Assembly: GCA_035623825.1 (NCBI GenBank)
Contig: DASPSR010000014.1
Coordinates: 1 to 26,009 of the forward strand
Direction: 5' to 3'
DNA: 26,009 bases
From: Nitrospirota bacterium
GTDB taxonomy: Bacteria > Nitrospirota > UBA9217
Positions within the stretch are counted from its first letter, which is position 1; every line of letters begins with the position of its first letter. Under the pieces are notes generated by a model. That model searched no databases, was not told the DNA's origin, and saw only the letters and a list, made by a program, of their open reading frames with translations. Below are positions 3,479-21,728 of the stretch, piece after piece. The translations under genes and the position numbers were made by a program.

Positions 3479-3480
3479 CG

Positions 3481-4188
3481 ATGTCGGAAGAGAAAGAACT
3501 TATTTTGCTTGTTGAAGACGAGCCGCAGATGCGGCGCTTTCTCCGAATAACGCTCCAGAGCCAGGGCTATCGCCTCGTAGAGGCGGCTACTGCCCAAGAG
3601 GGCCTGATGCAGGCGACGACGCGTTGTCCCGATGTGGTGCTCCTCGATCTGGGCCTGCCCGATCTCGACGGTCTCGAGGTCACTAAAAGGCTGCGCGAAT
3701 GGACACAAACGCCCATTATCGTCATATCAGCACGGGAACAGGAAATGGATAAGGTCAAGTCGCTCGATGCCGGCGCCGACGATTATCTGACAAAACCGTT
3801 CAACGCAGGAGAGCTTCTCGCAAGGATACGCGTCGCCATGCGACACGCGTCCAGAAGAAATACTGACAAGCAAGAGCCGGTCTTTGCCCTCCTGAACCTG
3901 CGGGTGGACCTGTCGCAGCGTCAGGTATTCGTCGATAACAATGAAGTGCACCTTACCCCCATCGAATACAAACTGCTGACGGTGCTGGTCCGCCATGCAG
4001 GCAAGGTTATCACCCACAGCCAGCTTCTAAAGGAAGTATGGGGCCCCGCTCACGTGAACGAGGTCCAGTATCTGCGTGTCTACATGACGCAGCTCAGGCA
4101 TAAACTGGAGGCCGACCCCGCGAGGCCGCGTTTACTCATGAACGAGCCGGGGATCGGTTATAGGCTAAAATGCGATCCCGAAGAATGA
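3481..4188 (+). CDS. kdpE: OmpR-family response regulator KdpE
   Basis: Start at ATG 3481, 2 nt after the kdpD stop; the track's start at 3340 overlaps kdpD. Motifs VEDE, LDLGLPD, GADDYLTKPF, LTPIEY, YLRVYMTQLRHKLE, EPGIGY. Confidence 0.96.
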   Translation: MSEEKELILLVEDEPQMRRFLRITLQSQGYRLVEAATAQEGLMQATTRCPDVVLLDLGLPDLDGLEVTKRLREWTQTPIIVISAREQEMDKVKSLDAGADDYLTKPFNAGELLARIRVAMRHASRRNTDKQEPVFALLNLRVDLSQRQVFVDNNEVHLTPIEYKLLTVLVRHAGKVITHSQLLKEVWGPAHVNEVQYLRVYMTQLRHKLEADPARPRLLMNEPGIGYRLKCDPEE

Positions 4189-4372: not shown

Positions 4373-4401
4373 TTGCAATGGCAGTGTCCTTGCTATATAA
4401 T
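4373..4401 (+). promoter_or_regulatory. Sigma70-type promoter of the KimA-like gene
   Basis: TTGCAA (4373-4378), 17-nt spacer, perfect TATAAT (4396-4401). Confidence 0.7.
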
Positions 4402-4487
4402 TGAACTGTCTCCATGGAGAGTGTATCGGTGGCGCAGCCGCATGCAACGCTCAACTGCATGAATATTCCGATAAGACCGCATATTGT

Positions 4488-6488
4488 ATGGACCAACCAC
4501 AGAGACCCTCACTTACCCAGCGGTTAAAGACCCTTGTCTTCGGCGGGAAGCATGACATTGAGGATACGTCGCTTTTTCACAGGCTGACCCTCATTGCGTT
4601 CTTCGCATGGATCGGGCTCGGCGCCGACGGCCTTTCGTCGTCCTGCTACGGCCCGGAGGAAGCGTTCCTCGCCCTCGGCAGCCATACCTATCTGAGCATC
4701 TTCGTCGCCATCATGACAGTCCTTACGGTCTTCATCATCTCTGCCAGTTACTCGCAGATCATCGAGCTCTTCCCCTCCGGTGGCGGCGGATATGTCGTGG
4801 CGAGCAAACTGCTTTCTCCCAATGCCGGCATGGTCTCAGGATCGGCGCTGCTCATCGATTACGTGCTCACGATCACCCTGTCCGTGGCGAGCGGTGCCGA
4901 CGCCCTTTTCAGTTTTCTGCCGCCACAGTGGCAGCCGTACAAGCTTGCGCTCGCCGTGTCCGGCGTCATCGTCCTGACCATGATGAATATACGGGGGGTC
5001 AAAGAATCAGTGCTCCCGCTCGTGCCGATTTTTCTTACCTTCGTCGCGACCCATGCGTTCATCATCGTATATGCGATCTTCTCGCACCTGGGCAACGTCC
5101 ATACAGTCATTGACGCAACGCGGGCCGATCTGGCCCGGTCGCAGATGGAACTCGGCACGGTCGGCATGCTGCTCATGGTTCTGCGAGCCTACAGCATGGG
5201 CGCAGGCACGTATACCGGCCTGGAGGCGGTGAGCAACGGCCTTCCCATACTCCGGGAGCCAAAGGTCAGGACCGGAAAGCGCACCATGCGATACATGGCA
5301 ATATCGCTCTCGGTGGTCGTTATGGGTCTGATGGTCGCCTACCTCCTGTACCGCGTTGCGCATGTTGAGGGCAAGACCCTGAACGCCGCGCTGTTCGAGA
5401 AGATGACCGCCGAATGGGGGCCAGGAGGGAACATCTTCGTGTTCGTGACGCTATTGTCCGAGGCCATGCTGCTGTTCGTTGCCGCCCAGACAGGTTTCCT
5501 CGATGGTCCGCGCGTACTCTCGAATATGGCCCTCGACCGATGGTTCCCCACCAAATTCGCCATGCTGAGCGACCGTCTGGTGACCCAAAAGGGGATCCTG
5601 CTCATGGGCGGCGCATCACTGGTAACGATGATTCTTGCCGGTGGATCGGTTTCGTATCTCATCGTCCTGTACAGCATCAACGTCTTCATAACCTTCTTCC
5701 TGTCTCAGCTTGGCATGGTGCGCCATTGGTGGGAGGTACGCGGCAAGGAAGCCCACTGGGAGAAAAAGCTCTTCATCAATGGCGTGGGCATGGTGCTCAC
5801 GTTCTTCATCCTCATATCGGTTACGTTCGTCAAGTTCTATGAGGGCGGCTGGATCACCTTGCTTCTCACAGGAACCCTGGTCGTCATCGCCTTGCTGACC
5901 AAGCGGCACTATCGGAATACGTTCCAGATCTTGAAACGGCTCGACGAGCTGGTGACTGTAGCGGAAGCTTCCTGTCCGGCTTTTCCCGGCGAACAGGGGA
6001 CGCATAAGGAGCTGAAGGTGAAGTACGATCCCCAGGACAAGACGGCCATCCTGCTGGTGAACGGTTTCAACGGCCTCGGACTCCATACGCTCTTCAGCAT
6101 CATCCGCCTATTCGGGGGGATCTTCAAGAACTTCGTGTTCATCCAGGTGGGCGTCGTTGACGCCGGGAACTTCAAGGGAGCCGAAGAAGTGTCCCATATG
6201 AAGGCCGAGGTACGGATGGAATTGGACCGTTACGTGCATTATATGCGGTGTCACGGATATTATGCGGCGGGTTATGTATCGTTCGGGAATGACGTCGTTG
6301 ATGAGGTGGCCCGCCTCGTGCCGGAGATCCTTGAGCGCTTTCCCAACGCGATCCTCTTCGGCGGGCAGCTCGTGTTCCCCAGAACCACATTCCTGTCAGG
6401 CGTTTTCCACAACTACACCATCTTTGCGGTCCAGAGAAGATTTTACAGCCAGGGCATTCCTGTCGTTGTCCTCCCTATCCGCGTTTAA
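4488..6488 (+). CDS. kimA: APC-superfamily permease, KimA-like K+/H+ symporter with C-terminal cytosolic domain
   Basis: About 12 TM helices. KimA-like motifs DGLSSSCYGPEE, FPSGGGGY, DYVLTITLSVASG, TGLEAVSNG and FYEGGW. Adjacent to kdpDE. ATG 4488 preferred because the TTG at 4401 overlaps the -10 box. Confidence 0.85.
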   Translation: MDQPQRPSLTQRLKTLVFGGKHDIEDTSLFHRLTLIAFFAWIGLGADGLSSSCYGPEEAFLALGSHTYLSIFVAIMTVLTVFIISASYSQIIELFPSGGGGYVVASKLLSPNAGMVSGSALLIDYVLTITLSVASGADALFSFLPPQWQPYKLALAVSGVIVLTMMNIRGVKESVLPLVPIFLTFVATHAFIIVYAIFSHLGNVHTVIDATRADLARSQMELGTVGMLLMVLRAYSMGAGTYTGLEAVSNGLPILREPKVRTGKRTMRYMAISLSVVVMGLMVAYLLYRVAHVEGKTLNAALFEKMTAEWGPGGNIFVFVTLLSEAMLLFVAAQTGFLDGPRVLSNMALDRWFPTKFAMLSDRLVTQKGILLMGGASLVTMILAGGSVSYLIVLYSINVFITFFLSQLGMVRHWWEVRGKEAHWEKKLFINGVGMVLTFFILISVTFVKFYEGGWITLLLTGTLVVIALLTKRHYRNTFQILKRLDELVTVAEASCPAFPGEQGTHKELKVKYDPQDKTAILLVNGFNGLGLHTLFSIIRLFGGIFKNFVFIQVGVVDAGNFKGAEEVSHMKAEVRMELDRYVHYMRCHGYYAAGYVSFGNDVVDEVARLVPEILERFPNAILFGGQLVFPRTTFLSGVFHNYTIFAVQRRFYSQGIPVVVLPIRV

Positions 6489-7836: not shown

Positions 7837-8055
7837 TGTGGCTTCCTCCTGATCGCAATGATACCCGCCTCTTCAGGCGAAGAGGTATGATCTATATCAC
7901 AGGCAACTGATTGTACGTGGAAGCCTTTATGACACGGCACTTTGAATTGCTGAGCATGTGTCTGCCGATCGTCTGACGATAACCTCTTCATGCCGATAAA
8001 CTCATGAATCGTCTTCTCCGCTCCTCCAAGATGCTATAAGCGAAGACAAGACGGC

Positions 8056-8084
8056 TTGCCATTTGGTATTTCACGGGATATATT
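8056..8084 (+). promoter_or_regulatory. Sigma70-type promoter abutting the mpg start (leaderless layout)
   Basis: TTGCCA-17 nt-TATATT, then 6 nt to ATG 8091. No Shine-Dalgarno. Confidence 0.55.
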
Positions 8085-8090
8085 TTCCCT

Positions 8091-8672
8091 ATGGCCTTTC
8101 ATCGAAAACGTACTGCCATTCTGAAAAAACTCGGGCATCCATTCTATCAACGTGATGCAGAAAAGCTTGCCCGCGGCCTGATCGGAGCGATTCTTGTCCG
8201 TCGCAGCCGTGGCAAAGAATACCGGGCGCGCATCGTGGAAACCGAAGCCTATATCGGTCCCCATGACCGCGCATCCCACTCTTCCAAGGGCCGCACGAGG
8301 CGCAATGAGGTCTTGTTCGGGCCCGCCGGCCGCGCCCACGTTTACCTGATCTACGGGATGTACGAGATGTTCAATATTGTAGCGGGCAAAACAGGCGGCG
8401 GACAGGCAGTGCTCATCCGGGCAGCTGAGCCCCTTGATGACTGGAAGGTCGATCTCTCAGGGCCGGGCAAGCTCACGCTCGCGTTCAAGATCACACGTTC
8501 CATGAACGGCATGGACCTGACCAAGGGCACGCTGTACATTGCGCGCAATCCTGGCTACCGGCCACGGATAAAAAGGGCGAAAAGGATCGGCGTGGATTAT
8601 GCCGGGGAATGGAAAAACAAACTGCTCCGCTTCATCGATGACAAGAGCAAGGCGGTGGTTAACCACAGATGA
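8091..8672 (+). CDS. mpg: DNA-3-methyladenine glycosylase, MPG/AAG family
   Basis: RIVETEAYIG, DRASHS, FGPAGRAHVYLIYGMY, AVLIRAAEP, GPGKL, RIGV. Confidence 0.95.
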   Translation: MAFHRKRTAILKKLGHPFYQRDAEKLARGLIGAILVRRSRGKEYRARIVETEAYIGPHDRASHSSKGRTRRNEVLFGPAGRAHVYLIYGMYEMFNIVAGKTGGGQAVLIRAAEPLDDWKVDLSGPGKLTLAFKITRSMNGMDLTKGTLYIARNPGYRPRIKRAKRIGVDYAGEWKNKLLRFIDDKSKAVVNHR

Positions 8673-9014: not shown

Positions 9015-9869
9015 ATGCAGACCGAGAAGCTGGGCCTCGAACACGAAGATCTCCTCCACCAAAAACTCCGTAATATCTCTGTTCCGCTGTCGGAATACAC
9101 ATTCCCGAACCTCTATCTCTTCCGCAAGAACCATGAGTACGAAGTGATGCTCGACAAGGAGGTTTTTATCCTCGGCCGCTCGTACGACGGGCATGTATTT
9201 CTCATGCCCACGGCGGACGTGCGCACGCTGGACATTGGATACCTCAAGGAGCTTATGCGCGATGTCGATTTTCTTTTCCCGATCCCTGAAGAGTGGGTTC
9301 CGGCATTCAGCGCGGATGAGTTTGAGATAACATTCGCAGAAGGCGATGCGGACTACCTCTACACCGTTCAGAAAATGAGCACTTTTGCAGGCAGAAGACT
9401 GCACAAAAAGCGAAACCTCCTCAAACAGTTCATCGAAGCACATGCGCACGACGCCAAGCCGCTTACAAATAACCGGCTTAGTGATGCACGTTTCATCCTG
9501 AAAGAATGGCTGGCGATGACGAATATGAACGAAGATGAAACGGATCACGCAGCCTGCCTCGAGGCGCTCGGACTGTATGAAGAGCTTATGCTCTGCGGCG
9601 GGATCTATTACGCCGACAGCGAACCCGCAGGGTTCGTGCTTGGCGAAGAACTGAACGAGGAAACATTTGTCCTGCACTTCGCGAAGGCCCGGACGAAGTT
9701 TAAAGGCGTTTATCAATACATGTTTAACAATTTTGCAAAGATCCTCCCGCCCAAATATAAATACCTGAACCTTGAGCAGGACCTGAATAGGGAGAACCTC
9801 CGGATCTTTAAATCATCCTACGTCCCGGATCTGATGCGGAAAAAGGCCCGGGTACGTTTAAAAAACTGA
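9015..9869 (+). CDS. DUF2156 / phosphatidylglycerol lysyltransferase C-terminal-like (GNAT-fold) soluble protein
   Basis: SEYTFPNLYLF, DYLY, GRRLHKKRN, VLHFAKA, GVYQ, YLNLEQDL...LRIFKSSY.P. No TM segments. Confidence 0.85.
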   Translation: MQTEKLGLEHEDLLHQKLRNISVPLSEYTFPNLYLFRKNHEYEVMLDKEVFILGRSYDGHVFLMPTADVRTLDIGYLKELMRDVDFLFPIPEEWVPAFSADEFEITFAEGDADYLYTVQKMSTFAGRRLHKKRNLLKQFIEAHAHDAKPLTNNRLSDARFILKEWLAMTNMNEDETDHAACLEALGLYEELMLCGGIYYADSEPAGFVLGEELNEETFVLHFAKARTKFKGVYQYMFNNFAKILPPKYKYLNLEQDLNRENLRIFKSSYVPDLMRKKARVRLKN

Positions 9870-10286: not shown

Positions 10287-11021
10287 ATGTTGCTCTCAGA
10301 GAACGAACGGGAAAGATATTCGAGACAGATGATGATGGAGGGCTGGGGCGAAGAAACCCAGACGAAGCTCAAGAAGTCCACGGTGTTCATCGCCGGAGCA
10401 GGCGGACTCGGGTCGCCGGTGTCGATCTATCTTGCTGTTGCCGGCGTGGGGAACATGAGGGTGTGTGATTTTGATTCACCGGACTGGTCGAACCTCAACC
10501 GTCAGATACTCCACGACCACACGAGAATCGGAACCAATAAAGCGATATCCGGCAAGATGACGCTTGAGAAGTTGAACCCCGATATCAAGGTCACCGCAAT
10601 CACGGATAAGATTGTGGCAGAGAACGTGGACGATCTCGTAGGAAACGCCGATATCATTCTTGACTGCATGGACAACTTTCCAACGCGGTATCTCCTGAAC
10701 GAATCGGCCATCAAGAAAAAGATCCCGCTCGTGTATGGCAGCATCTGGGGAATCGACGGGTGTCTTTCGTTCATCCGATCCCCTGAGACGCCATGTCTCC
10801 GCTGCATCTTCCCCGAGGCGCCGCCCAAGGAGGTCTTTCCCGTACTCGGCACCACACCGGCAGTTATTGGATCGCTTCAGGCATTGGAAGCCATTAAGTT
10901 CCTTGCCGGCATAGGCACTAACGTCATGGGTTGGCTTCTTGTTTGGGAGGGCGGCACGACGGAATTCAGAAAGTTCAAGATCCGGAAAGACCCCGATTGC
11001 CCGACGTGCGGGGGAAAATAA
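10287..11021 (+). CDS. HesA/MoeB/ThiF-family (E1-like) adenylyltransferase
   Basis: RYSRQ, GAGGLGSP, DFD, SNLNRQ, DCMDNF, and Zn motifs CLRC and CPTC. No rhodanese domain. moeB and thiF cannot be told apart here. Confidence 0.93.
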   Translation: MLLSENERERYSRQMMMEGWGEETQTKLKKSTVFIAGAGGLGSPVSIYLAVAGVGNMRVCDFDSPDWSNLNRQILHDHTRIGTNKAISGKMTLEKLNPDIKVTAITDKIVAENVDDLVGNADIILDCMDNFPTRYLLNESAIKKKIPLVYGSIWGIDGCLSFIRSPETPCLRCIFPEAPPKEVFPVLGTTPAVIGSLQALEAIKFLAGIGTNVMGWLLVWEGGTTEFRKFKIRKDPDCPTCGGK

Positions 11022-11242
11022 AACGAATCACCTCAGACAATGTGCGAAGATAATGAGCGGGGCTCGGAATGGTTCACGATCTCTGCGGCGCCACGATGGC
11101 GGATTGGCTTGTGTTTCTCCACAATGTGATTATCCAAGGTCCGGGCTGAGAAACCGAACGGGCAATCGTGTCTATAGAATTATTTTGATATTGAATGAAT
11201 GGAGGGTTGCCAATACAGGATAGTTCATTAAGTTGCATGTAC

Positions 11243-11293
11243 TGGTAATTTCACCACCTTTTTGTTGACAGTAACCGAAAACAGGGTTATTAT
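11243..11293 (+). promoter_or_regulatory. Sigma70-type promoter of the signalling operon with two candidate operators
   Basis: TTGACA (11265-11270)-17 nt-TATTAT (11288-11293). TGGT-N6-ACCA at 11243-11256. TAACC-N8-GGTTA at 11272-11289. Confidence 0.6.
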
Positions 11294-11364
11294 TGATAGT
11301 AATAAAGTAGCAAATTGCCCTTCTTTGAGTGATTATCTTTGTCATAACACCATTCTTTCAGAAA

Positions 11365-12282
11365 ATGACTAAATTCGCCATAGTGCTTTATACTTGCTTG
11401 ATACTTATATCGGGAGGATTTGGATGCGATACGGGCAAACAGGCGGCGCCTCCCCGAAAAGCACCGGAAGGGCAACAATTACTGATCGGGCTTATTCCTG
11501 AGCAAAATCTGTTCCGGCAGATGGAGCGGTATGAGCCGCTTGCCCGGTATCTCTCGCAGAAAACCGGGATGCAAATTGCCTTGAAAATCCTTCCTCACTA
11601 CGGTAACATTATTGACAATTTTGTCTCGGGAAAAATAGATGGAGCGTTCTTTGGAAGCTTCAGCTATACGCTTGCTCATGCGAAGTTCGGCGTCCAGGTG
11701 ATTGCCCGGCCCGAAGACCGGGACGGGAAATCGACATATCACGGCCTCATCTTTGTGAGAAAGGACAGCGGGATCAAGTTCATTCAGCATATGGCAGGGA
11801 AGAGATTTGCCTTTGTCGACAGGGCCACGACAGCCGGCTATCTCCTTCCCCTTGCCTATTTCAAACAGCACAGGGTGGACTACAGGTCATACCTCAAGGA
11901 AATCTATTACACCGGGACCCACGAGGACGCGATTTACGATGTCCTGAACAAAAAGGCCGACATTGGAGCCGCGAAAAACACCGTCTATGAGAGGCTTGCG
12001 GAGACCGACAGCAGGATAAAGGGAGAGCTTGTCATCCTCGAACGCTCACCGGACGTGCCGGAGAACGGACTCGCCGTACGACAGGACCTCGATGAAGCCG
12101 TGAAGCGGAAGCTGACGGAGGTTCTCCTGAACATGCAGAACGACGCCGAAGGACGTTCAGTCCTGGAAACCTTCGGCGCGCGCAAGTTCATTGCAACATC
12201 GGATGCAGACTACCAACCAGTTTACAGGTACGAGAGGGAAATCGGCCTGAACCTCGCCACCTATGATTATCGGAACGAATAA
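11365..12282 (+). CDS. PhnD-like (phosphate/phosphite/phosphonate family) substrate-binding protein, probable lipoprotein
   Basis: Signal ending GGFGC, IGLIPEQN, YHGLIFVRKDS, GKRFAFVDRATTAGYLLP, GTHEDAI. Alternative GTG start at 11329. Confidence 0.88.
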   Translation: MTKFAIVLYTCLILISGGFGCDTGKQAAPPRKAPEGQQLLIGLIPEQNLFRQMERYEPLARYLSQKTGMQIALKILPHYGNIIDNFVSGKIDGAFFGSFSYTLAHAKFGVQVIARPEDRDGKSTYHGLIFVRKDSGIKFIQHMAGKRFAFVDRATTAGYLLPLAYFKQHRVDYRSYLKEIYYTGTHEDAIYDVLNKKADIGAAKNTVYERLAETDSRIKGELVILERSPDVPENGLAVRQDLDEAVKRKLTEVLLNMQNDAEGRSVLETFGARKFIATSDADYQPVYRYEREIGLNLATYDYRNE

Positions 12283-13739
12283 TGAAGAAAAAGATCATCA
12301 TAGGATTGAGCGCTTTTTCCCTTATATTTCTCTTGAGTTCGGTCTATACTATTGCGACCATAGAGCATGCAACGACGAAAATGGACAACCTGATCAGGCT
12401 CCATCAGGTCGAGATCCTGAGAGAGCATCTGCTGATACAGATCAAACGGACGCAGTCCGACATGTACCTGAAGGGGACCCCTTACGCCCGGAGCATCGAT
12501 ACGATCGTGAACCACATGAGGACGATGGGCGATATCGTCACCATGTGTTTTTCCTGTCACCACGCCGAGCCCGTGGCGAGGAGACTCACCGATCTCAAAG
12601 GAAAGGTCGAGGATTACAAGATCAACCTCAGCAGAGCTCTCACCATGAACGCGAATGCAAAGAGACTTCGTGCGGAAGAGGACCATGCTTTTCAGGTCGG
12701 TACGGAACTTATCGACGAGGTGGAAAACATCACTCAAATGGCGAACGTGAAGCTCGAGCAAAAGACACAGGCTGCATCCCAGGAGATTACCCGCACCAAG
12801 ATCATGCTCTACATCCTTGTTGTGGCGGTTCCCGTCGCTGTCATTGGACTTTCCATCCTTTTCATTCGGGGATTCACCACGCCCGCTCACGAGATTCTAT
12901 CGGCAACGAGACAATTGAAAAAGGGCGACCTGAGTTACCGGATTGAGGGCCTGAAGGATGAGTTCGGTGAGGTTGCCGCATCATTCAACGAAATGGCGGA
13001 GTCGATCAAAGATGATTACCTCAAGATGCAGTGGGCGGAGCAGCTCGTGGTGCTCGGGGAGATGGCGGGAGGACTGGCCCACGAGATCAAAAACCCCCTC
13101 GCGGGAATCAAGGCGTCCATGGAGGTGCTCACCATGGACACGACCCTCACTGAGGAGAACCGGGATGTCCTCCTGAAAGGGGTGGAGCAGATCAAGAGGA
13201 TAGAGGTACTCCTCAAGGCACTCCTGAATTTTGCCCGGCCGCCGAAGCCGCACTTTATGCCTGCTGATGTCAACAGCGTGCTTGATGTCACGATCGGCCT
13301 TGCACTGCGGCATCCCCAGTTTGCAACAAAGGACTCCAAGACGATATCGGTCGTCAAAGACTACGATGAGCGTCTTCCGAAGACGATGGCGGACCCCCAG
13401 CAGCTCCAGCAGGTGTTCATGAACTTGCTTCTGAACGCCGCTGATGCCATGCCGGACGGCGGTACGATAAGCGTTCAGACATCGCACGACGACTCGGTAC
13501 GATCCCTTCACATCCAGATCATCGATACGGGAAGCGGGGTCGACGAAACGGTGGTTGACAAGATCTTTCAGCCGTTTTTCACCACGAAACCGCAGGGAAC
13601 GGGATTGGGACTCGCCATAACAAAACGCCTCATTGAGCAGCATGGTGGAAGCATTAACGTCAAGAACAATCATGCAAAGGGGGTGGCATTCATGATCACG
13701 CTGCCTATCCGCGACAGGGAAGAGGTGCAGACCATATGA
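12282..13739 (+). CDS. Sensor histidine kinase with periplasmic CxxCH motif, HAMP, HisKA and HATPase domains
   Basis: TM1, periplasmic domain with CFSCH (12546-12560), TM2, HAMP (DEFGEVAASFNEM), AHEIKNPL, NLLLNAADA, FFTTKPQGTGLGL. TAATG overlap with the upstream gene. Confidence 0.95.
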   Translation: MKKKIIIGLSAFSLIFLLSSVYTIATIEHATTKMDNLIRLHQVEILREHLLIQIKRTQSDMYLKGTPYARSIDTIVNHMRTMGDIVTMCFSCHHAEPVARRLTDLKGKVEDYKINLSRALTMNANAKRLRAEEDHAFQVGTELIDEVENITQMANVKLEQKTQAASQEITRTKIMLYILVVAVPVAVIGLSILFIRGFTTPAHEILSATRQLKKGDLSYRIEGLKDEFGEVAASFNEMAESIKDDYLKMQWAEQLVVLGEMAGGLAHEIKNPLAGIKASMEVLTMDTTLTEENRDVLLKGVEQIKRIEVLLKALLNFARPPKPHFMPADVNSVLDVTIGLALRHPQFATKDSKTISVVKDYDERLPKTMADPQQLQQVFMNLLLNAADAMPDGGTISVQTSHDDSVRSLHIQIIDTGSGVDETVVDKIFQPFFTTKPQGTGLGLAITKRLIEQHGGSINVKNNHAKGVAFMITLPIRDREEVQTI

Positions 13740-15124
13740 GGGCTCCAGCAAAGATTTTTCTCATTGATGACGACGAGCTGATCATTTCCATGCTTTCGAG
13801 GGCTCTGAAGACCGAAGGGTACGATGTCCGTGCGCTCACGAGCGCGCGGGATGTGGTGAGCGAGGTCAAATCATGGGTGCCTGCGGTCGTCATGCTCGAT
13901 ATCCGGCTACCCGAACGCAGCGGGATCGAAATCCTCGAAGATATCATGAAGAGCGGTGTCCACACTCAGGTCATCATGCTGACGGCGGATGACACGGCGG
14001 AGACCGCGGTGAAGGCCATGAAGCTCGGTGCCGTGGACTATCTGACGAAGCCGTTCAACATCGATGAGGTGAAGATCGTCATCGGGAACTACGTTGAGCG
14101 GGCTAGGCTGCACCAGGAAGTCGACTATCTCAGAAAGGTCAATTCTGAGTTCTTTGATCGCGAGCTCATCGGCGAATCGGAAGCTATCAAAACAGTCAAA
14201 ATGGAAATTTCAAAGATGGCGAACGCCCGCGTTTCCAGCATTCTCATTACGGGAGAGAGCGGGACCGGCAAGGAGGTCGTTGCACGATACTTCCATCGCC
14301 TCGTTTCCGGTGATAACACATCGCGGCGGGTCCCCTTCCTGGGGGTCAACTGCGCCGCCCTGCCCGAGCAGCTGCTCGAGAGCGAGCTCTTCGGCTTCGA
14401 GAAGGGATCGTTCACTGACGCCAGGGCCGATAAGAAGGGGGTCTTCGAGCTTGCGAACGGCGGCACCATACTTCTTGACGAGATTGGTGATATGAATCCG
14501 AATCTCCAGACCAAGCTATTGCGGATCCTGGAGGAACGGACGGTACGTCATATCGGGGGGAAAGACGATATTGCCGTAGATGTGACCGTTATCACCACGA
14601 CGAACAAGAATCTCGCCGAGGCGGTCGAGAGCGGCGCATTCAGGATGGACCTGTTCTTCAGGCTCAGCACTTTTTATCTCCATGTCCCGCCGCTCAGGGA
14701 GAGAAAAGAGGATATCCCGCTCCTTGCCACGCATTTCCTCACATCCCTGGCCACACGATATAACAAAAAGAACGTTAAAAGCTTCTCTCCGGAGGCCGAG
14801 GAGTTCTTGGTTTCTTATGGATGGCCGGGGAATGTCCGCGAGCTCAGGAACGTTGTGGAACGGCTCGTGGTGCTCGAAAGCGCCGAGGTCATTCTTCCGC
14901 AGCATCTGCCGGACTGGCTTACAGGGCGATCAGTTGCCGAACCGAGGCAGTCAAGCGGCGGGTTTGTGCTGCCGGAGGCTGGGATATCACTCGATGACGT
15001 GGAAAAGGATCTTATTATACAAGCTCTGGACCGTGAAAAGCACAATAAGGCACGGGCGGCAAAACTCCTGCGCATCAGCTACGATACGCTCCGCTATCAG
15101 GTAAAGAAACTGGGGCTGGAGTGA
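13736..15124 (+). CDS. NtrC/AtoC-family sigma54-dependent response regulator
   Basis: REC domain, GESGTGKE, ESELFG, GSFTDA (GAFTGA loop variant), LLDEIG, FRMDLFFRL, WPGNVREL and a Fis-type HTH. ATGA overlap with the kinase. Confidence 0.96.
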   Translation: MRAPAKIFLIDDDELIISMLSRALKTEGYDVRALTSARDVVSEVKSWVPAVVMLDIRLPERSGIEILEDIMKSGVHTQVIMLTADDTAETAVKAMKLGAVDYLTKPFNIDEVKIVIGNYVERARLHQEVDYLRKVNSEFFDRELIGESEAIKTVKMEISKMANARVSSILITGESGTGKEVVARYFHRLVSGDNTSRRVPFLGVNCAALPEQLLESELFGFEKGSFTDARADKKGVFELANGGTILLDEIGDMNPNLQTKLLRILEERTVRHIGGKDDIAVDVTVITTTNKNLAEAVESGAFRMDLFFRLSTFYLHVPPLRERKEDIPLLATHFLTSLATRYNKKNVKSFSPEAEEFLVSYGWPGNVRELRNVVERLVVLESAEVILPQHLPDWLTGRSVAEPRQSSGGFVLPEAGISLDDVEKDLIIQALDREKHNKARAAKLLRISYDTLRYQVKKLGLE

Positions 15125-15137
15125 CGAGAACGACGTC

Positions 15138-15908
15138 TCAATCAGGCATTTTCTGAGGACCCATGACACGGGCCATTGCTTCCTGGGGCGGGATAAATTG
15201 GATGCCGACCCTGAACAAGCTGCTCTGATCGACGATCATGCTCCACCGGACTACACCGGCGGCCTGCTCCTTGATGTTGCTGAATGTGATCACATGCCCG
15301 GGCGCGAGTGGAGACATCGTCAGCATGCCAATCCCGGTATCACTGATATCGAGAACTTCCGCGCTGAGCCGTTCTCTTTGGACTGCATTGCCGTTCATGC
15401 CGGCCAGGGTCCCTGTCGAAAAGGTTATGGCTTTTGCCGTGAACCTTCTTTGGCACCGCCGCTTGTCATTTGTCAACCACTTCACGAATGATTCATAGTC
15501 CCGGTACGCAAGCGCGTCGTTTCTGTACGCGGGCCCCTTCCCCGCCAGGATCTTGTCTAGCGATTCCTTGACTATCTCCAGATCGAATGGTTTGGAAAGA
15601 AACAGGGACGCATTCTCCTGAATGAATCGCATGGTCGTGTCGTCAAGATCGCTCCCTGTCATTATGATGACCTTGGTGGCCGGAGAAACTTGTTTGATCG
15701 TTTTCATGATATCGAGACCGTTGAGGTCGGGGAGATGGATATCGAGAAAACAGACGTCATAGAATTGGGAGGCAATCTCTCTGAGCGCCTCTGTGCCGTT
15801 CTTAACGGTCTTCACCACAGTCTTGTCGTTTTGGAGCTTTGATGAGAGCGAATAAAGAATCAGATTTTCATCATCAGCTACCAGGATTTTTTTTATCGGC
15901 TGATCCAT
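15138..15908 (-). CDS. Response regulator with REC and C-terminal PilZ domain
   Basis: REC residues ADDE, FLDIHL and SKPF. PilZ signatures RRCQRR (RxxxR) and DISDTG (DxSxxG), plus GVVRW...VGIQF. Confidence 0.88.
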   Translation of the reverse strand: MDQPIKKILVADDENLILYSLSSKLQNDKTVVKTVKNGTEALREIASQFYDVCFLDIHLPDLNGLDIMKTIKQVSPATKVIIMTGSDLDDTTMRFIQENASLFLSKPFDLEIVKESLDKILAGKGPAYRNDALAYRDYESFVKWLTNDKRRCQRRFTAKAITFSTGTLAGMNGNAVQRERLSAEVLDISDTGIGMLTMSPLAPGHVITFSNIKEQAAGVVRWSMIVDQSSLFRVGIQFIPPQEAMARVMGPQKMPD

Positions 15909-15966
15909 CGTTGATTCGGGAGTTTCTTGAAAAATGTGAGAACGAAATTATCCTTACAAGATGTTC

Positions 15967-15982
15967 AGCAAGTATTGTACCA
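15967..15982 (-). promoter_or_regulatory. Sigma54 (-24/-12) promoter for the REC-PilZ gene
   Basis: Minus strand TGGTAC-AATAC-TTGCT with exact GG-N10-GC spacing, 58 nt before the ATG, and an A/T tract upstream. Confidence 0.75.
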
Positions 15983-16095
15983 TTTATTTTTTTATGAAGG
16001 TATTATAGCATTTTTTTGTTTTATAGATTTTACAGGCTTTTACAGCCACGGTCGTTAGTGAAACAACTTAAGTACTCGAGAAAATTTCAGAGTAT

Positions 16096-16131
16096 AGGGA
16101 AATTCACCAAATTGTGGTGGTGATTTAATCG
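16096..16131. promoter_or_regulatory. Candidate tandem enhancer (bEBP binding) sites
   Basis: AGGGAAATTCACCA (16096-16109) and TGGTGATTTAATCG (16118-16131) are offset by 22 bp and resemble TGGTAATTTCACCA at 11243. Confidence 0.4.
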
Positions 16132-16462
16132 CTTCCTGTACAAATATAACAGATGAAATCGGAACATAACCTCTTGATTCTTGATTGCAATAAGTGTATT
16201 ACTATACCTTGTCATTATCCTGGTTCATCGTAATGCACAAGATGAGACTGAAAGGAGAAATGACGAAGGCGGGTGCGGGGATGCTTTTTTGCTTTTAATC
16301 ATGATTTCAAGGAGATTGAAAGTTTCCGTTCAGCAAAAATAATACTTTCGATGCGATGTCCTTATATTATTGCCTTTTCATGTACGATTTTTAACGTGCA
16401 GCAACATCACGCGAATTTGAAAAAACAGTCATTTCCCTGGGACCTTCTTTTTTAAACTACAG

Positions 16463-16478
16463 TGGTATGATCATTGCT
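16463..16478 (+). promoter_or_regulatory. Sigma54 (-24/-12) promoter for the glycosyltransferase/TPR cluster
   Basis: TGGTAT-GATCA-TTGCT with exact GG-N10-GC spacing in the intergenic region. Confidence 0.7.
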
Positions 16479-16770
16479 AATATTTTGGACGCATTTGAAA
16501 GGCCGCTCATCTTATCGGACGAGATCCAAATAAGTTCATCTAGGGCCGATACCCATTTTATGGTGTCAAAAAGCACCTAGACCCGCAACTGTTCAATATC
16601 GAATGGACGGGACAGCAAAAGACCCTGTTCATGCAGCCCAAACAGATTGAAGAAAGAACCGATCATCCGGCTGACACCATAATCCTGCCATCTGTGCGGG
16701 AACGAAGGGCAGTAAGTACGCCGGCCTGATGCATGCAGGTGCAGGGTGCAAGCGAGGAACACGATCGTAT

Positions 16771-18594
16771 ATGACCAAGGCAACAGAACGGCATAACACG
16801 GCTTACCCAGAAGGAGGGCTGGCACAAGGGCCTTCTCTCAATAAATATCGATTGTTCCAGCTCCTGACCATCATAGCGATGTCTTGTGCGGTCTATAGCA
16901 ACGCCATCCGTAACGGGTTTGTCTACGACGACATCCCCCAGGTGGTGCAGAACCCGTGGATCAGAGAGGCGCGGTTCGTCAAGGAGATATTTTCCACCAA
17001 TGTATGGGCATTTCAGGGAATCAGCACCAACTATTACCGGCCCCTTATGCACATCAGCTTCATGCTGAGCTATTATCTCTTTGGTCTCGCACCTTGGGGA
17101 TTCCATGTGGTGAATATCCTGCTCCATGCCGGCGTTGCCGCCCTGGTACTTCTCATCTCCTCCCGGCTGCTTCGGACGGCCGAACCGTCAGCATCTTTGT
17201 TTTCCCGTTCCCTTCCCTTCCTCGCGGCCGTCCTGTTCGCTGTCCACCCTATTCATACCGAAGCCGTCGCCTGGATTGGGGGTGTCACCGACCTCTGTTT
17301 CAGCCTGTTCTTTCTGCTCGCACTTTATCTGTATATCCTCTCCACTGATAGGGGCGCCCATCAGAGGGGCCTTTACCTTCTTTCCGTGGCGTCCTTCTTT
17401 CTCGCAACCCTCTGCAAAGAGCCGGCCCTGACCTTCCCTCTCATACTTGCTGCATACGACTACGCCTACAGCAGGGAAGCGCTCCGGCCCCTGGATTATC
17501 TGAGAAGATATTCCCCCTATCTGGGAGCTGCAGCCGTCTATTTCATTCTGAGGGCCAATGCTCTCGGCGGATTTGCGCCAGTCAGGCGTCACGGCGAGTT
17601 GAGCGCTTATGAATACCTGATCAATGTCTTTCCCCTGTTCAGGCAGTATATGGGAAAGCTTCTCCTGCCGTCACATCTTAACGCCTACCACGTTTTTTTG
17701 CCGATCTCATCCATCTTTGAGCCGAACGGCCTGCTCTCCCTGGCAATAACCGTGGTCTTCGTCGGCATCATGCTGCTGGCCTTGAAAAAGAGCAAACCGG
17801 CTTTTTTCGCCCTTGTCCTGGTGCTGGTGCCATTGCTGCCGGCCCTTTACATCCCGGGTGCCGGTGACAACACCTTCGCCGAGCGATACCTCTATCTTCC
17901 GTCCGTCGGCTTTGTAATGCTTGTTGCTCTCATGGCGGGGCGGGTCGTGCAGCAGGAGCCGCGGCGGTCTTTCCCCCTGGCAGCGGTCCTCGTGTTCTTC
18001 GCCGTGAGCTATTCCTTTGGTACGGTGCAGAGAAACGGCGTCTGGAAAGATGATGAAAGCCTCTGGCGCGACGTGGTGCAGCATTCTCCGAACAGCGCGG
18101 TGCCCCACTACAATCTTGCTTGCGCCCTGAATGCACGGGGACGGATCGACGAAGCGATAGGGGAATATCAGGCAGCCATCAAGATCCAGCCGGCAGTCGT
18201 TGCCTATACGAGCCTCGGCGCGGCCTACCAGTCAAAGGGACTCTTCAACGAAGCCATAGAACAGTACGAACTTGCCGTGCGGCTGCAGCCAGGCGATGTC
18301 AATGCCCGCACTTTCCTCGCGGCTGCCTACGCAGAGTCGGGCGCACTGGACAAGGCCATAGAACATTTTCGTATCGTGGTACAGCTGCAACCGGATTCCG
18401 CAAACGCCCAGTACGGCCTGGGGAGGGCGTACCTCGAAAAGGGGCAGCTTGAGGAGGCCATATCCCATCTGCGGTCCGCCGTGCAGCTTGATCCTGATGA
18501 ACCGCTATTCGGCAACGCTCTGGATATGGCGTTATTGTTGCGAAAGCCGGCTAACCGACAGGGCGGCAAAGCCGGAAGCGTGGCGGGGGAATAA
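16771..18594 (+). CDS. TMTC-like GT-C membrane glycosyltransferase with about 4 C-terminal TPRs (paralog 1)
   Basis: FVYDD after TM1, YYRPL, FAVHPIHTEAV, CKE, AERYLYLP, RNGVWKDD..LW, then TPRs. ATG 16771 follows GAGGA; alternative start 16729. Confidence 0.88.
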   Translation: MTKATERHNTAYPEGGLAQGPSLNKYRLFQLLTIIAMSCAVYSNAIRNGFVYDDIPQVVQNPWIREARFVKEIFSTNVWAFQGISTNYYRPLMHISFMLSYYLFGLAPWGFHVVNILLHAGVAALVLLISSRLLRTAEPSASLFSRSLPFLAAVLFAVHPIHTEAVAWIGGVTDLCFSLFFLLALYLYILSTDRGAHQRGLYLLSVASFFLATLCKEPALTFPLILAAYDYAYSREALRPLDYLRRYSPYLGAAAVYFILRANALGGFAPVRRHGELSAYEYLINVFPLFRQYMGKLLLPSHLNAYHVFLPISSIFEPNGLLSLAITVVFVGIMLLALKKSKPAFFALVLVLVPLLPALYIPGAGDNTFAERYLYLPSVGFVMLVALMAGRVVQQEPRRSFPLAAVLVFFAVSYSFGTVQRNGVWKDDESLWRDVVQHSPNSAVPHYNLACALNARGRIDEAIGEYQAAIKIQPAVVAYTSLGAAYQSKGLFNEAIEQYELAVRLQPGDVNARTFLAAAYAESGALDKAIEHFRIVVQLQPDSANAQYGLGRAYLEKGQLEEAISHLRSAVQLDPDEPLFGNALDMALLLRKPANRQGGKAGSVAGE

Positions 18595-18599
18595 GCATA

Positions 18600-20426
18600 A
18601 TGACCGGTGGCATTGAGCAAAAAAGGACAGGCAACGTATTGTGGCTGCAGATAGCGGCTATCCTTCTGGTAAGCGTAGCCGTGTACTCCAACGCCGTCTT
18701 CAATGGTTTTGTGTCTGATGATTCATCACAGATAGTGGATAACCCCTGGATTAAAGACATAGGGCACCTCCCGGAAATATTTAGTAAAAGTGTCTGGAAC
18801 TTCCAAGGAAGCCTTTCTAATTATTACCGACCGCTCATGCATATTATTTTTATGCTGACTTACCACCTTTTTGGGCTGGCCTCATGGGGTTATCATGCGG
18901 TCAGTATCCTGTTTCACGCCCTGGCCTCGGTGCTTGTCTTCCTTATAACATCTAAACTTTTCAGGCAGTCTCGTCGCCGGATTTCCACTTCTGTTCTTAC
19001 ACCCCCGCTCATGGCCGCACTGTTATTTGCTACCCACCCCATCCATACGGAGGCAGTAGCGTGGGCATCGGCAATGCCTGAGCTGTCATTCACCTTATTC
19101 TTTCTCTTGTCGTTATATTTGTACACGCTCTCTTTTTCAGAAAATAACGCGGTATCCTATAACGGTAAGTTTCTTCTTTCCTTGGGAGCATTTTTCCTAG
19201 CCTCGCTGTGCAAAGAAACAGCCTTGACGCTCCCCATCATTCTGATGGCCTATGACTATGCTTTCCAAAATGGCCACCTCGTTCGCCGTCCAATGGAGGC
19301 GCTGAAACGTTACGTGCCTTTTATCCTCGTTGCCGGAGCTTACTTCCTGTTACGCTTTGGCGCCTTGGGCGGATTCGCACCGGATGCAAGTCGTCCCAAA
19401 ATAGACATCCAACAATTTGTCATCAATGTGTTTCCGCTGTTCGCGGGGTATCTTGAAAAAATGATCATCCCGGTAAAATTGAACGCTTTTTATATCTTCC
19501 ATCCCATCGAATCCATATTTGATACAAGGGGCGTCATCTCCCTTGCAGTCTCATTGGCGTTCATTTCATTTGTCCTTGTGGCTGCAAAGAAGGACAAAGC
19601 AGCCTTCTTCAGCCTTGTCCTGATCGGGATACCACTGCTCCCTGCCCTGTATTTCCCTGCAATCACGGGCAGTGTGTTCGGGGAACGATACCTCTACCTT
19701 CCCTCCTTTGGGTTCGTACTCCTGCTGGCGTTCTGGATCGATTGGGTCGGGGCCCGCAAGGAGAAATGGCTTTCCGTCACCGTAACCGGCGTCTTTGCCG
19801 CTTTGCTTTGTTTTTATTCCTTCGTGACGGTGAGCAGAAATGCCGTGTGGAAGGATGAATATACTTTTTGGACCGATACAGTGAAAAAATCACCGGATGG
19901 CGCGATACCCCATTACTGTCTGGGAACCGCTTTGCTGTCGCTTGGCAGGGTGGACGAAGCTATAGACCACCTCGAGTCCGCCTTAAGCCTACGGCCGACT
20001 TTGGACACTGAGGCGCGCGCACACAACAGCCTCGGGGTGGCGTACGCCAAGAAAGGATTGCTCAATAAGGCAATCGAAGAATTTTCAATCCGCTTAACAA
20101 TGGACCCCTATAATGCCATTATTCATACCAATATCGGGCAGGCCTATGTGGATTCAGGTTCAACAGATAAAGGTATCGAACATCTGCAAATCGCCTTGAC
20201 GCTAAAACCCGGGTTTGTCTCGGCCCATGAGAACCTGGGCATGGCTTACATGAAGAAGGGCTTGATAGACAAGGCAATCGAACAGCTTGAAACGGCCCTA
20301 CGATTGGAGCCCGGCGTTTCGAGGTATCACGCCAATCTTGCGAATGCCTATGAAATGAAAGGCTGGCATGAGAAGGCAGAGGAGCAGAGGCGCGCGGCAG
20401 CGAGCCTGATGAGGGGGGAAGAGTGA
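18600..20426 (+). CDS. TMTC-like GT-C membrane glycosyltransferase with about 5 TPRs (paralog 2)
   Basis: FVSDD, YYRPL, FATHPIHTEAV, CKE, GERYLYLP, RNAVWKDE..FW, then TPRs. Collinear with paralog 1. Confidence 0.88.
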   Translation: MTGGIEQKRTGNVLWLQIAAILLVSVAVYSNAVFNGFVSDDSSQIVDNPWIKDIGHLPEIFSKSVWNFQGSLSNYYRPLMHIIFMLTYHLFGLASWGYHAVSILFHALASVLVFLITSKLFRQSRRRISTSVLTPPLMAALLFATHPIHTEAVAWASAMPELSFTLFFLLSLYLYTLSFSENNAVSYNGKFLLSLGAFFLASLCKETALTLPIILMAYDYAFQNGHLVRRPMEALKRYVPFILVAGAYFLLRFGALGGFAPDASRPKIDIQQFVINVFPLFAGYLEKMIIPVKLNAFYIFHPIESIFDTRGVISLAVSLAFISFVLVAAKKDKAAFFSLVLIGIPLLPALYFPAITGSVFGERYLYLPSFGFVLLLAFWIDWVGARKEKWLSVTVTGVFAALLCFYSFVTVSRNAVWKDEYTFWTDTVKKSPDGAIPHYCLGTALLSLGRVDEAIDHLESALSLRPTLDTEARAHNSLGVAYAKKGLLNKAIEEFSIRLTMDPYNAIIHTNIGQAYVDSGSTDKGIEHLQIALTLKPGFVSAHENLGMAYMKKGLIDKAIEQLETALRLEPGVSRYHANLANAYEMKGWHEKAEEQRRAAASLMRGEE

Positions 20427-20582
20427 TTCAAGACCCGAAAAAATCAATTAAGGCCTGCGGTGACCTGCTGTGAACAAGAAGATGACACGGCATGCGATCA
20501 GCCATGACGGGATATGAGCAGGAAATGAAGGGCAAGCCGTAAGACGTTCCGACCCAAAAAGGACCGGAACCAGGGTTTCTCT

Positions 20583-21728
20583 ATGGCCAAGGGAAAATTA
20601 AGAGAATTCACTGTTTTTATGAAATACGCGACGGTCGGGGCGGTGGGGACTGCGCTGGACGTGGGATCGCTCTACGTTTTTGTCGATTTTCTGCACATTC
20701 CCGTTCTCGTGGCCGCAGCGATTTCCTTTATGCTTGCCGTTGTCAATAATTTCATCATGAACAAGATCTGGACGTTCCGGAACAATAGCCGCAATTTTAG
20801 GAAGCAGTTCATAAAATTCTTTATTGTGTCGGTAATCGGGCTTATTCTTACAGAAATCTGCATGGGTGTGTTCGTTTACCTTCTGGACATTTGGTATATC
20901 GCATCAAAACTCGCGACCTCGGTCATCGTATTGACCTGGAATTTTCTTGCGAACAAGAACTGGACGTTCACCGAGAAGGTCCGCCCTCGTCCCTCCGTCG
21001 AACAGTATGATTATGCCCTTACGATAGTGATCCCGGCTTTCAACGAAGCAAAACGCATAGAAAATACGCTCGAAGCCGTTCACCGTTATTTCGAACGCAA
21101 AGGCATCAAGCGGGAAATCATCGTCGTCGATGACGGCAGCAGCGACAACACCGCAGCGGTCGTGAACGCACTGGAAGCGAAGATCCACGATCTGCATTGT
21201 GTCCGCTATTTCCCCAATCGAGGGAAGGGGTACGCTGTCAAGAAAGGAGTGGAAAGGAGCCGAGGCGAGTATATCCTGTTTACCGATGCGGACAACTCGA
21301 CGCCGATCGAGGAGTTTGATAAGTTGTATCCTCTGCTGCCTCACGCCAAGGTAGTCATCGGGTCCCGCTATATGGCCGGCAGCGACGTAAAGATAAAGCA
21401 ACCGAAATACAGGATCCTTCTCGGCAGACTGGGGAACTTCCTCATCCAGGTTTTTCTCTTTGATGATATAAGGGACACCCAATGCGGGTTCAAGGCCTTT
21501 CAGCACAGGGCAGCAGAGGAGCTTTTCAGCCGCATGAAGGTCAACCGGTTCGGATTCGATATCGAGCTGCTGGCTATCGCATACCTGCTGAAGTATTCTG
21601 TACGCGAGGTTCCGGTAAACTGGTATAATTCTCCCGTGAGCAGGGTCAGGCCGATCAAAGACGCGCTTCGAACGTTCTCGGAGTTGCTCTATATAAAACT
21701 GAATCTGATGAGCGGACGGTATGAATAA
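20583..21728 (+). CDS. GtrA-like flippase domain fused to a GT2 polyprenyl-phosphate glycosyltransferase (Dol-P-Glc synthase-like)
   Basis: N-terminal 4-TM region (KYATVG...NNFIMNKIWTF...WNFLANKNWTF). C-terminal IVIPAFNE, VVDDGSSD, NRGKG, FTDAD, GSR, DTQCGFK and FDIELL. Confidence 0.92.
   Translation: MAKGKLREFTVFMKYATVGAVGTALDVGSLYVFVDFLHIPVLVAAAISFMLAVVNNFIMNKIWTFRNNSRNFRKQFIKFFIVSVIGLILTEICMGVFVYLLDIWYIASKLATSVIVLTWNFLANKNWTFTEKVRPRPSVEQYDYALTIVIPAFNEAKRIENTLEAVHRYFERKGIKREIIVVDDGSSDNTAAVVNALEAKIHDLHCVRYFPNRGKGYAVKKGVERSRGEYILFTDADNSTPIEEFDKLYPLLPHAKVVIGSRYMAGSDVKIKQPKYRILLGRLGNFLIQVFLFDDIRDTQCGFKAFQHRAAEELFSRMKVNRFGFDIELLAIAYLLKYSVREVPVNWYNSPVSRVRPIKDALRTFSELLYIKLNLMSGRYE

Follow-up and report, generated by a model that had tools for sequence, protein, structure and literature searches.

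The 26,009-nucleotide (nt) stretch of Nitrospirota DNA analysed here (contig DASPSR010000014.1 of assembly GCA_035623825.1), hereafter the window, carries at positions 11365–15124 three co-directional, overlapping genes that, by open reading frame (ORF) calls and Pfam, encode a binding lipoprotein, a histidine kinase and a sigma-54 activator. We consider it probable, with reservations set out below, that their products form a three-component envelope sensor with heme and oxyanion inputs and sigma-54-dependent outputs. The operon of lipoprotein, membrane kinase and sigma-54 activator is conserved across Nitrospirota and metagenome-assembled genomes (MAGs) labelled Deltaproteobacteria, Deferrimicrobia and Acidobacteria. 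Its elements are as follows.

11365–12282, plus strand: PhnD/PtxB-family periplasmic binding lipoprotein of 305 amino acids (aa), matching PF12974 (Phosphonate-bd) over its full length at 1.5e-67
11827–11838, plus strand: TTAG, residues 155–158 of the binding protein, at the position of the S-T-S anion-binding loop (alignment to PtxB and HtxB)
12282–13739, plus strand: sensor histidine kinase of 485 aa, with transmembrane segment 1 (TM1), periplasmic domain, TM2, HAMP, HisKA and HATPase_c (Pfam)
12354–12806, plus strand: periplasmic sensor domain, kinase residues 25–175, a predicted four-helix bundle (AlphaFold 2, AF2; no Pfam model)
12399–12425, plus strand: conserved LHQVEILRE, kinase residues 40–48 in helix 1, with His41 as candidate distal heme ligand
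12546–12563, plus strand: conserved CFSCHH, kinase residues 89–94 at the end of helix 2, candidate c-type heme attachment motif
13736–15124, plus strand: sigma-54-dependent response regulator with receiver (REC), AAA+ and HTH_8 parts (Pfam: Response_reg, Sigma54_activat, AAA_lid_14, HTH_8)

The binding-protein and kinase genes are joined by a TAATG overlap (12280–12284) and the kinase and activator genes by an ATGA overlap (13736–13739); an alternative upstream start of the first gene is possible at the GTG at 11329. The original prediction, made from the letters of the window, had described a PhnD-like lipoprotein, a histidine kinase and a sigma-54 activator, the first two coupled through TAATG, with no ATP-binding cassette (ABC) permease or ATPase in the window, CFSCH in the periplasmic domain of the kinase, TTAG where PhnD has STSG, and no Cys after the lipobox of the binding protein. 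ORF calls and Pfam confirmed the three-component set, and the coupling of the first two genes proved to recur across phyla. A Pfam scan of the 18 window ORFs of about 110 aa and longer detected no ABC permease or ATPase domain. CFSCH occupies kinase residues 89–93 (12546–12560), followed by a second His, and lies between two hydrophobic segments (approximately 5–27, preceded by an N-terminal KKK, and 174–195); it is therefore periplasmic. TTAG was found where predicted in the alignment to PtxB and HtxB, and the translated binding protein has no Cys after the lipobox Cys21, hence no counterpart of AioX Cys106.

A pattern scan of 185,579 species-representative genomes yielded 166 confirmed relatives, of which 80 loci, numbered from L001 onward, were kept. 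The five-sequence alignment A3 was used to build the scan, the diverse alignment A2 having no sufficiently conserved stretch; all 80 loci share the peptide pattern LH[QK][VA]E[IF]LR[EK], and the set is biased to closer relatives. They come from Nitrospirota/Thermodesulfovibrionia, from MAGs labelled Deltaproteobacteria, Desulfobacterales, Syntrophorhabdales, Deferrimicrobia and Acidobacteria, and from a few labelled Chloroflexota. The binding-protein gene ended no more than 60 nt from the kinase start in 68 of the 75 loci with enough upstream sequence, the stop and start overlapping by 1 or 4 nt in 53 of 67 loci and lying within 14 nt in the others. The sigma-54 activator was the next gene after the kinase in 56 of 63 informative loci. 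Moreover, the binding proteins of the relatives are 49–77% identical to that of the window, which appears far above what would be expected between unrelated members of the binding-protein family. No importer-type ABC genes lay near the module in the window or the 80 loci; of the 674 ORFs in the 81 regions, six bore ABC ATPase signatures, none of these six closer than 4 kb and most of exporter size. Loci without an adjacent binding-protein gene were L013, L014, L024, L031, L063, L074 and L075, three of which follow an S-adenosylmethionine synthetase gene. In addition, single MAGs carry paralogous modules (L014/L022/L060, L030/L037 and L045/L063), and two or three copies per MAG suggest diversified inputs.

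The proposed heme input is read from the sensor domain. A word-indexed protein search with kinase residues 1–200 returned 557 proteins at E ≤ 0.001, and in the best 120 of these CxxCH stood at alignment position 89 without exception (120/120). The second x of the motif, between F90 and C92, was filled by 11 different residues among these 120 homologues, as expected if constraint falls on the heme-binding positions alone. A HMMER search with residues 25–175 against 1.84 billion cluster representatives (50%-identity clusters) gave 239 matches at E ≤ 0.001; among the best 150 of these, 149 carried CxxCH, in 148 cases as CxxCHH, and the only one without it, P0257, is a fragment of 160 aa whose sequence departs from the others beyond about residue 60. 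In the 77 full-length representatives, C89, C92, H93 and H94 were invariant within a domain of 16% mean column identity, and H41, R47, L50, Q58 and G140 were kept in at least 90%. Kinase residues 40–48 were 99–100% conserved in 79 locus sequences. The domain was accompanied by HAMP in all 77 representatives, by histidine kinase parts in 65–66, by receivers in 17 and by GGDEF in 5; being joined to such varied output modules, it is a portable input module. These alignments indicate that CxxCH is not a chance feature of the sensor domain, and that the domain is a distinct conserved family with CxxCHH as its hallmark.

The sensor domain matched nothing in Pfam at E ≤ 1, including 4HB_MCP, TarH, CHASE3, DUF3365/Tll0287-like and cytochrome models, and nothing among the PDB sequences at E ≤ 10. 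An AF2 model built on a 23-row alignment (predicted local distance difference test, pLDDT, 89.2) placed helices at 2–62, 72–89, 96–121 and 126–199, giving a four-helix bundle in which helices 2 and 3 make a short inner hairpin between longer outer helices. In Foldseek, the top-ranking structures were the Adeh_2942 helical sensor, the LytS-N/XylFII complex, NarQ and PcaY, all weak (E 0.015–0.06). Look-alikes in a protein atlas were 4HB_MCP_1, TarH and CHASE3 clusters at 0.94, a value that shuffled proteins reach in 4–10 of 100 cases. From helix lengths alone, CxxCHH at the end of helix 2 should stand level with the LHQVEILRE block of helix 1, and His41 is therefore a natural candidate for the sixth heme ligand.

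The second input would enter through the binding protein. It passed the TIGR01098 model of the phosphate/phosphite/phosphonate subfamily (175.7 bits, cut-off 112) and scored 197.1 bits against the PhnD equivalog TIGR03431, below the cut-off of 261.1. Its PDB sequence matches were led by PtxB (5jvb, 2e-32; 5o2j, 2e-30), followed by HtxB, PhnD, ArrX (4.5e-19) and AioX (2e-16). The best fold match of its AF2 model (pLDDT 90.7) was ArrX, with a TM-score of 0.91 on the target and a root-mean-square deviation of 2.2 Å, closely followed by PtxB, AioX, HtxB and PhnD. The lipobox Cys is kept in at least 85% of 68 orthologues.

Residues 152–160 read DRATTAGYL, where two PtxB chains have ASTSSHL and HtxB has NTSG. 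Among 37 orthologues, A157 and G158 of the loop never vary, and T155 is kept in at least 90%; in the pocket, Y101, G184 and H186 were invariant and Y79, T155 and D199 were kept in at least 90%. The accessible parts of PMC5908839 give the pocket of the AioX subfamily as Tyr88, Cys106, Tyr131, Ser161, Ser163, His192 and Asp210. When positions are matched by way of the PtxB alignment and the residues listed in that paper, and not by direct alignment, the binding protein keeps two Tyr, the His, the Asp and the first hydroxyl residue of the PhnD/AioX pocket, and the second Ser is replaced by Ala157. An intact anion pocket appears to be the most economical reading.

Contact between the two proteins was modelled with two copies of the sensor domain (residues 25–175), two hemes and binding-protein residues 36–305, using paired 37-row alignments. 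The interface score ipSAE was 0.74, 0.74 and 0.73, and the best of three controls gave 0.00. A score of 0.74 is reached by 116 of 157 solved complexes and by 2 of 215 mismatched pairs, a calibration from which our run differed in using its own alignments and a riding heme. The runs agreed in at least 94% of contacts, with a partner pLDDT of at least 89. On the kinase side, the predicted interface comprises residues 72–80 and 113–128, the membrane-distal tip of the bundle; on the binding-protein side it comprises 45–53 and 74–78 of one lobe and 179–188 of the other, around the pocket His186. The contact bridges the mouth of the cleft, the arrangement expected if cleft closure is what is read. 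The contacted positions rank with the best conserved of either protein: the contacted kinase residues S117, R118, T121, A124 and R128 are 94–100% conserved, and the contacted binding-protein residues P45, N48, F50, L76, E179, Y181, G184 and T185 are conserved in the 37 orthologues. The prediction is thus of a binding protein docked, cleft mouth first, on the conserved tip of the bundle farthest from the membrane.

Distances between loci were compared as a further line of evidence. Across 48 loci, binding-protein and sensor-domain distances correlated at r 0.61; given the activator, the partial correlation was 0.38 (permutation p 0.001), against 0.20 for the binding protein and the catalytic part of the kinase. 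This co-variation would lend weak support to a contact, as shared kinship inflates such figures. Kinases with and without an adjacent binding protein (72 versus 7 sequences) were not cleanly separated by any position. Tip residues 117, 118 and 124 were kept in 5 of the 7 kinases without a binding protein and in 94–99% of those with one, a comparison of too few and partly redundant sequences.

The output side is represented by the activator, which matched the AtoC model at 1.7e-124, below the cut-off of that model. Its sigma-54 contact loop is GSFTDA; among 58 orthologues, GAFTDA occurred in 43 and GSFTDA in 11. The following elements lie beyond its gene.

15138–15908, minus strand: convergent REC-PilZ protein, 13 bases after the activator gene (Response_reg 2.5e-25; PilZ 3.9e-4)
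15967–15982, minus strand: sigma-54-type -24/-12 element TGGTACAATACTTGCT, about 59 nt upstream of the REC-PilZ start, 1 mismatch
16104–16123, no strand assigned: inverted repeat TCACCA-N8-TGGTGA between the two promoters, a conserved block in alignment A6 and candidate activator binding site
16463–16478, plus strand: second, divergent sigma-54-type element TGGTATGATCATTGCT, facing a TPR/glycosyltransferase cluster, 2 mismatches
16729–18594, plus strand: first gene of the cluster of tetratricopeptide repeat (TPR) membrane proteins and glycosyltransferases, with TPR repeats, a possible target

The TGGTACAATACTTGCT element is conserved in L001–L003, and the same position holds sigma-54-type sites in many loci; TGGTATGATCATTGCT is conserved in L001 and L003. 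The inverted repeat is conserved in the three closest loci, L001–L003. At no more than one mismatch, it was matched 12 times in 812 kb, our own random estimate being about 2, and 9 of the 12 matches sit 377–980 nt beyond the activator gene. At no more than two mismatches, matches occurred at 0.21 per kb in the 377–980 zone and at 0.04 per kb elsewhere, an approximately fivefold difference. Between the divergent promoters, the spacer also holds CGAAGGCGGGT followed by a T-run (16264–16296), conserved with L001–L003; an Rfam search of 15900–16800, including this block, gave only sub-threshold miRNA noise.

The REC-PilZ gene is, judging from these sequences, a likely direct target of the activator and its product a second receiver. 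Its PilZ match scored 21.2 bits (cut-off 22.5), RxxxR is found at residue 150 and DxSxxG at 187, and the Asp pocket residues of the receiver are intact; the protein probably binds cyclic di-GMP (c-di-GMP). A convergent REC gene follows the activator in 36 of 52 informative loci, and in 15 it includes a PilZ part. In L009, a stand-alone PilZ gene (7950–8309) lies behind a plus-strand sigma-54-type element, and the convergent protein aligns with the REC and PilZ parts of the window protein (residues 6–239); the c-di-GMP link there recurs in another gene arrangement. On the other side, the gene family of 16729–18594 is also found downstream in L001–L003, and the sensor system may regulate the cluster that it opens. 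Three paralogous membrane proteins (16729–18594, 18600–20426 and 25429–end) share a C-terminal TPR or the same N-terminal membrane part, and the other members include a GtrA-GT2 fusion (20583–21728), a soluble TPR protein and two membrane proteins without a family. The region 16729–26009 looks like an envelope or protein glycosylation cluster.

Distant loci repeat the promoter layout, with one sigma-54-type element on the minus strand ahead of the REC gene and another on the plus strand ahead of the following operon, which encodes NHL-repeat propellers and multiheme cytochromes. Among the 52 loci whose sequence reaches far enough downstream of the module, 26 have a cytochrome with at least three CxxCH motifs on that side and 13 an NHL protein. 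With the promoters of relatives facing such genes, the usual job of the family therefore appears to be to control proteins of extracytoplasmic electron transfer. Loci with a neighbouring cytochrome gene are spread across the entire kinase tree. The window and L001–L003, which have no such neighbour, group in a supported clade whose sister comprises two loci with one. A cluster of approximately 430-aa six-heme proteins from 12 loci includes the cytochrome of L079 (8865–10163, minus strand), which matches OmcS (6ef8) at 4e-127 over its full length. These OmcS homologues, from L079 and 11 further loci in MAGs labelled Deltaproteobacteria and Deferrimicrobia, lie between the sigma-54 activator and the REC gene, and the NHL-propeller gene is divergent.

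Taken together, the proposed mechanism would run as follows. In the half of the bundle nearer the membrane, Cys89 and Cys92 would carry a c-type heme, with His93 as proximal and His41 probably as distal ligand; this heme would report either a diatomic gas or the redox poise of the periplasm. When the binding protein closed around a small oxyanion, its grip on the bundle tip would change, and both inputs would converge on helix 4, TM2 and HAMP to set kinase activity. The phosphorylated activator would bind TCACCA-N8-TGGTGA just downstream of its own gene and fire the two divergent sigma-54 promoters. Its targets would be the REC-PilZ gene and the TPR/glycosyltransferase envelope cluster in the window and, in many relatives, the REC gene, followed in some by an OmcS homologue, and the NHL-propeller and multiheme cytochrome genes.

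Several observations weigh against this scheme. CxxCHH, with its second His, departs from the most frequent cytochrome form, and it could serve a metal site. The place of His41 as sixth, distal ligand, probable in the model, derives from helix lengths alone. T-T-A stands in the binding loop in place of S-T-S, and 7 of the 75 informative loci have no binding-protein gene yet encode CxxCHH; the binding protein is therefore not obligatory for the kinase. The high score of the modelled complex could reflect likeness to solved binding-protein/kinase pairs. The canonical sigma-54 contact loop is GAFTGA, of which the activator keeps Phe and Thr and has Asp at the fifth position. Sigma-54-type matches are not more frequent in the whole window than expected (16 versus a mean of 11.4 in shuffles), and the case for these elements rests on position and conservation. 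Additionally, a multiheme cytochrome gene lies upstream too in 15 of 47 loci, and the cytochrome enrichment near the module is an impression and not a statistic. No cytochrome genes were found near the module in the window or L001–L003, and the link to electron transfer is therefore made by the family and not by the window locus.

Some of these points are shared by an explanation in which the binding protein is a degenerate, ligand-free co-receptor that stabilises the kinase dimer and the heme is the sole sensor. The change from S-T-S to T-T-A, the seven loci that manage without the protein and the lack of a transporter partner near its gene in the window and the 80 loci all fit such a role. 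However, the oxyanion-pocket residues of PhnD/AioX (two Tyr, His, Asp and the first Ser/Thr, as listed in the accessible parts of PMC5908839) are conserved, and the modelled interface joins the two lobes across the cleft mouth, as expected for the reading of cleft closure. We regard a degenerate co-receptor as unlikely.

A different explanation leaves the rest of the system as described and makes CxxCHH a metal-binding site or a thiol/disulfide redox switch, the four-helix-bundle sensor being an ordinary one. The heme on the sensor domain is read from its motif, no Pfam cytochrome model matches the domain, and the invariant His94 together with His41 could form a Cys2His2-type metal site. Nevertheless, C-x-x-C-H with a free second x is the c-heme signature, and the domain is periplasmic, where Cys pairs are normally oxidised. 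The neighbour genes in lineages with this sensor family include many multiheme cytochromes, so the maturation machinery is present there. We give the metal or thiol explanation little credence.

It is very improbable that the system is an arsenic respiration regulator of the AioXSR/ArrXSR/ArxXSR kind or a phosphite/phosphonate (PtxB/PhnD) transporter component for phosphorus scavenging, and both were rejected: the best sequence match is PtxB, the best fold match is ArrX and the operon form equals that of aioXSR (accessible parts of PMC5908839), but there is no equivalent of AioX Cys106 (same source), no aio, arr, arx, ptx or phn gene was seen among the window ORFs or the conserved neighbours of related loci, the PhnD equivalog score is under its cut-off with no importer-type ABC genes adjacent, and the sensor model is helical where that of AioS is sCache-like (accessible parts of PMC8050422).

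The envelope sensor with heme and oxyanion inputs thus remains our preferred reading, and it can be extended to the family. In this wider form, a new heme-c four-helix-bundle sensor and a docked PhnD-type lipoprotein would make a two-input receptor with a dedicated sigma-54 switch for OmcS-type, NHL and multiheme clusters, tying extracellular electron transfer to redox poise and an oxyanion in uncultured Nitrospirota and in Desulfobacterota-like, Deferrimicrobia and Acidobacteria lineages. We put this extension forward tentatively and are more inclined to doubt than to assert it. If true, the heme-bearing four-helix bundle would be a third scaffold for extracytoplasmic covalent heme beside the PAS-like and Cache folds, and a heme-sensor family of at least 239 sequence clusters would stand outside Pfam. 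A docking binding protein and a cofactor in one sensor domain would compactly integrate chemical and redox signals. Moreover, the sensor family is a concrete candidate switch for OmcS-like cytochrome and NHL clusters outside Geobacter, and the defined promoters and candidate operator form a pair usable for reporters.

As far as computation reaches, the original interpretation is supported. It had named conservation of CxxCH in homologues and modelling of the complex as checks, and both agreed with it; among the matches listed, the motif was present in 120/120 close and 149/150 distant homologues, and the complex reached an ipSAE of 0.74 versus 0.00 for the best control. The binding protein proved to have no ABC transporter partner near by in the window and the 80 loci, and the analogy drawn with AioX-AioS-AioR holds at the architecture level described in the accessible parts of PMC5908839 and PMC8050422. 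Attachment of a heme, an oxyanion as the ligand of the binding protein and the integration of two signals are inferences. The finding is larger than what had been predicted, with an unmodelled sensor-domain family, a predicted docking site and candidate promoter targets; the prediction had not included the likely outputs, namely the sigma-54 promoters, the REC-PilZ gene and the OmcS-type and NHL genes of relatives.

Other features of the window surround the operon. Ahead of it lies the following promoter candidate, the top sigma-70-type match within 10900–16800.

11265–11293, plus strand: sigma-70-type promoter candidate TTGACA-17-TATTAT, proposed from an 11/12 consensus match only

Upstream of the operon are genes for a protein with the C-terminal domain of phosphatidylglycerol lysyltransferase (9015–9869) and for a MoeB/ThiF-type adenylyltransferase (10287–11021); homologues of the 9015–11021 genes sit upstream in the closest loci only, and no link to the sensor was seen. 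Further upstream, a KdpD-type kinase (782–3478) and an OmpR-type regulator (3340–4188) precede an APC-family permease-like ORF (4401–6488) of 695 aa with a long C-terminal extension, and a sigma-54-type element, TGGCAGTGTCCTTGCT, lies immediately before this ORF (4379–4394). Rfam gave no match in the whole window.

In the open-access literature, we found no description of the module, of a helical heme-c kinase sensor or of a heme-c sensor with a docking binding protein. The closest known system is AioX-AioS-AioR, in which, according to the accessible parts of PMC5908839 and PMC8050422, a transporter-less PF12974 binding protein is co-transcribed with a histidine kinase and, in the Aio and Arx systems, with an AtoC-type sigma-54 activator that acts on an RpoN promoter. 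The likeness, which extends to ArxXSR and ArrXSR, lies in the PF12974 binding protein, kinase and regulator encoded in one operon. The likeness stops short of membership on three counts, namely the Cys, the fold of the sensor and the target genes: the window protein has no counterpart of the arsenite-binding Cys106; the sensor of AioS is sCache-like (accessible parts of PMC8050422), whereas that of the window is a predicted four-helix bundle with CxxCHH; and the Aio neighbours are molybdoenzymes, whereas here they are REC-PilZ, TPR/glycosyltransferase or cytochrome/NHL genes.

In XylFII-LytS and TorT-TorS, a transporter-less binding protein likewise regulates a helical periplasmic sensor, and the LytS N-terminal domain with XylFII (5xsd, 5xsj) is among the best, though weak, sensor fold matches (E 0.02–0.04). 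In TorT-TorS, the binding protein docks on the helical sensor domain of the kinase. The pair is cited in the accessible parts of PMC8050422. Unlike the proteins described here, these binding proteins belong to unrelated families (binders of sugar and trimethylamine N-oxide), and their kinase domains have no cofactor. NarX/NarQ, Tar, PcaY and Adeh_2942 resemble the sensor in having four antiparallel helices between two transmembrane segments, as predicted here, and in the fold matches; they differ in binding ligands directly at the dimer interface and in having no covalent cofactor, and no profile match to them was obtained.

Periplasmic c-heme sensors with a PAS-like fold (GSU0582/GSU0935) are cited in the accessible parts of PMC3831638, and the Cache_heme (DUF3365/Tll0287) family of c-heme sensors with a Cache fold is described in those of a 2026 preprint (PMC12889525). 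Both share with the window kinase a conserved CxxCH in an extracytoplasmic sensor domain fused to signalling modules; they have alpha/beta PAS or Cache folds, in contrast to the all-helical model here, and none is described with a docking binding protein.

The candidate targets recall the omcS region of Geobacter sulfurreducens. We take GSU2505, which lies beside omcS, to be an NHL-repeat protein. It is listed as hypothetical in the accessible parts of PMC10599522. According to those of PMC11077965, PMC10599522 and PMC3495685, the histidine kinase GSU2507 and the sigma-54-dependent regulator GSU2506 are encoded beside omcS (GSU2504), and GSU2507 affects cytochrome expression. The pair was rejected as an instance of the same module, GSU2507 being annotated as a kinase with Cache_1 and HAMP and GSU2506 with PAS (accessible parts of PMC10599522). 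No PhnD-type protein or heme motif is reported for it in these sources, and its likeness to the system described here lies in genomic logic rather than in the sensor.

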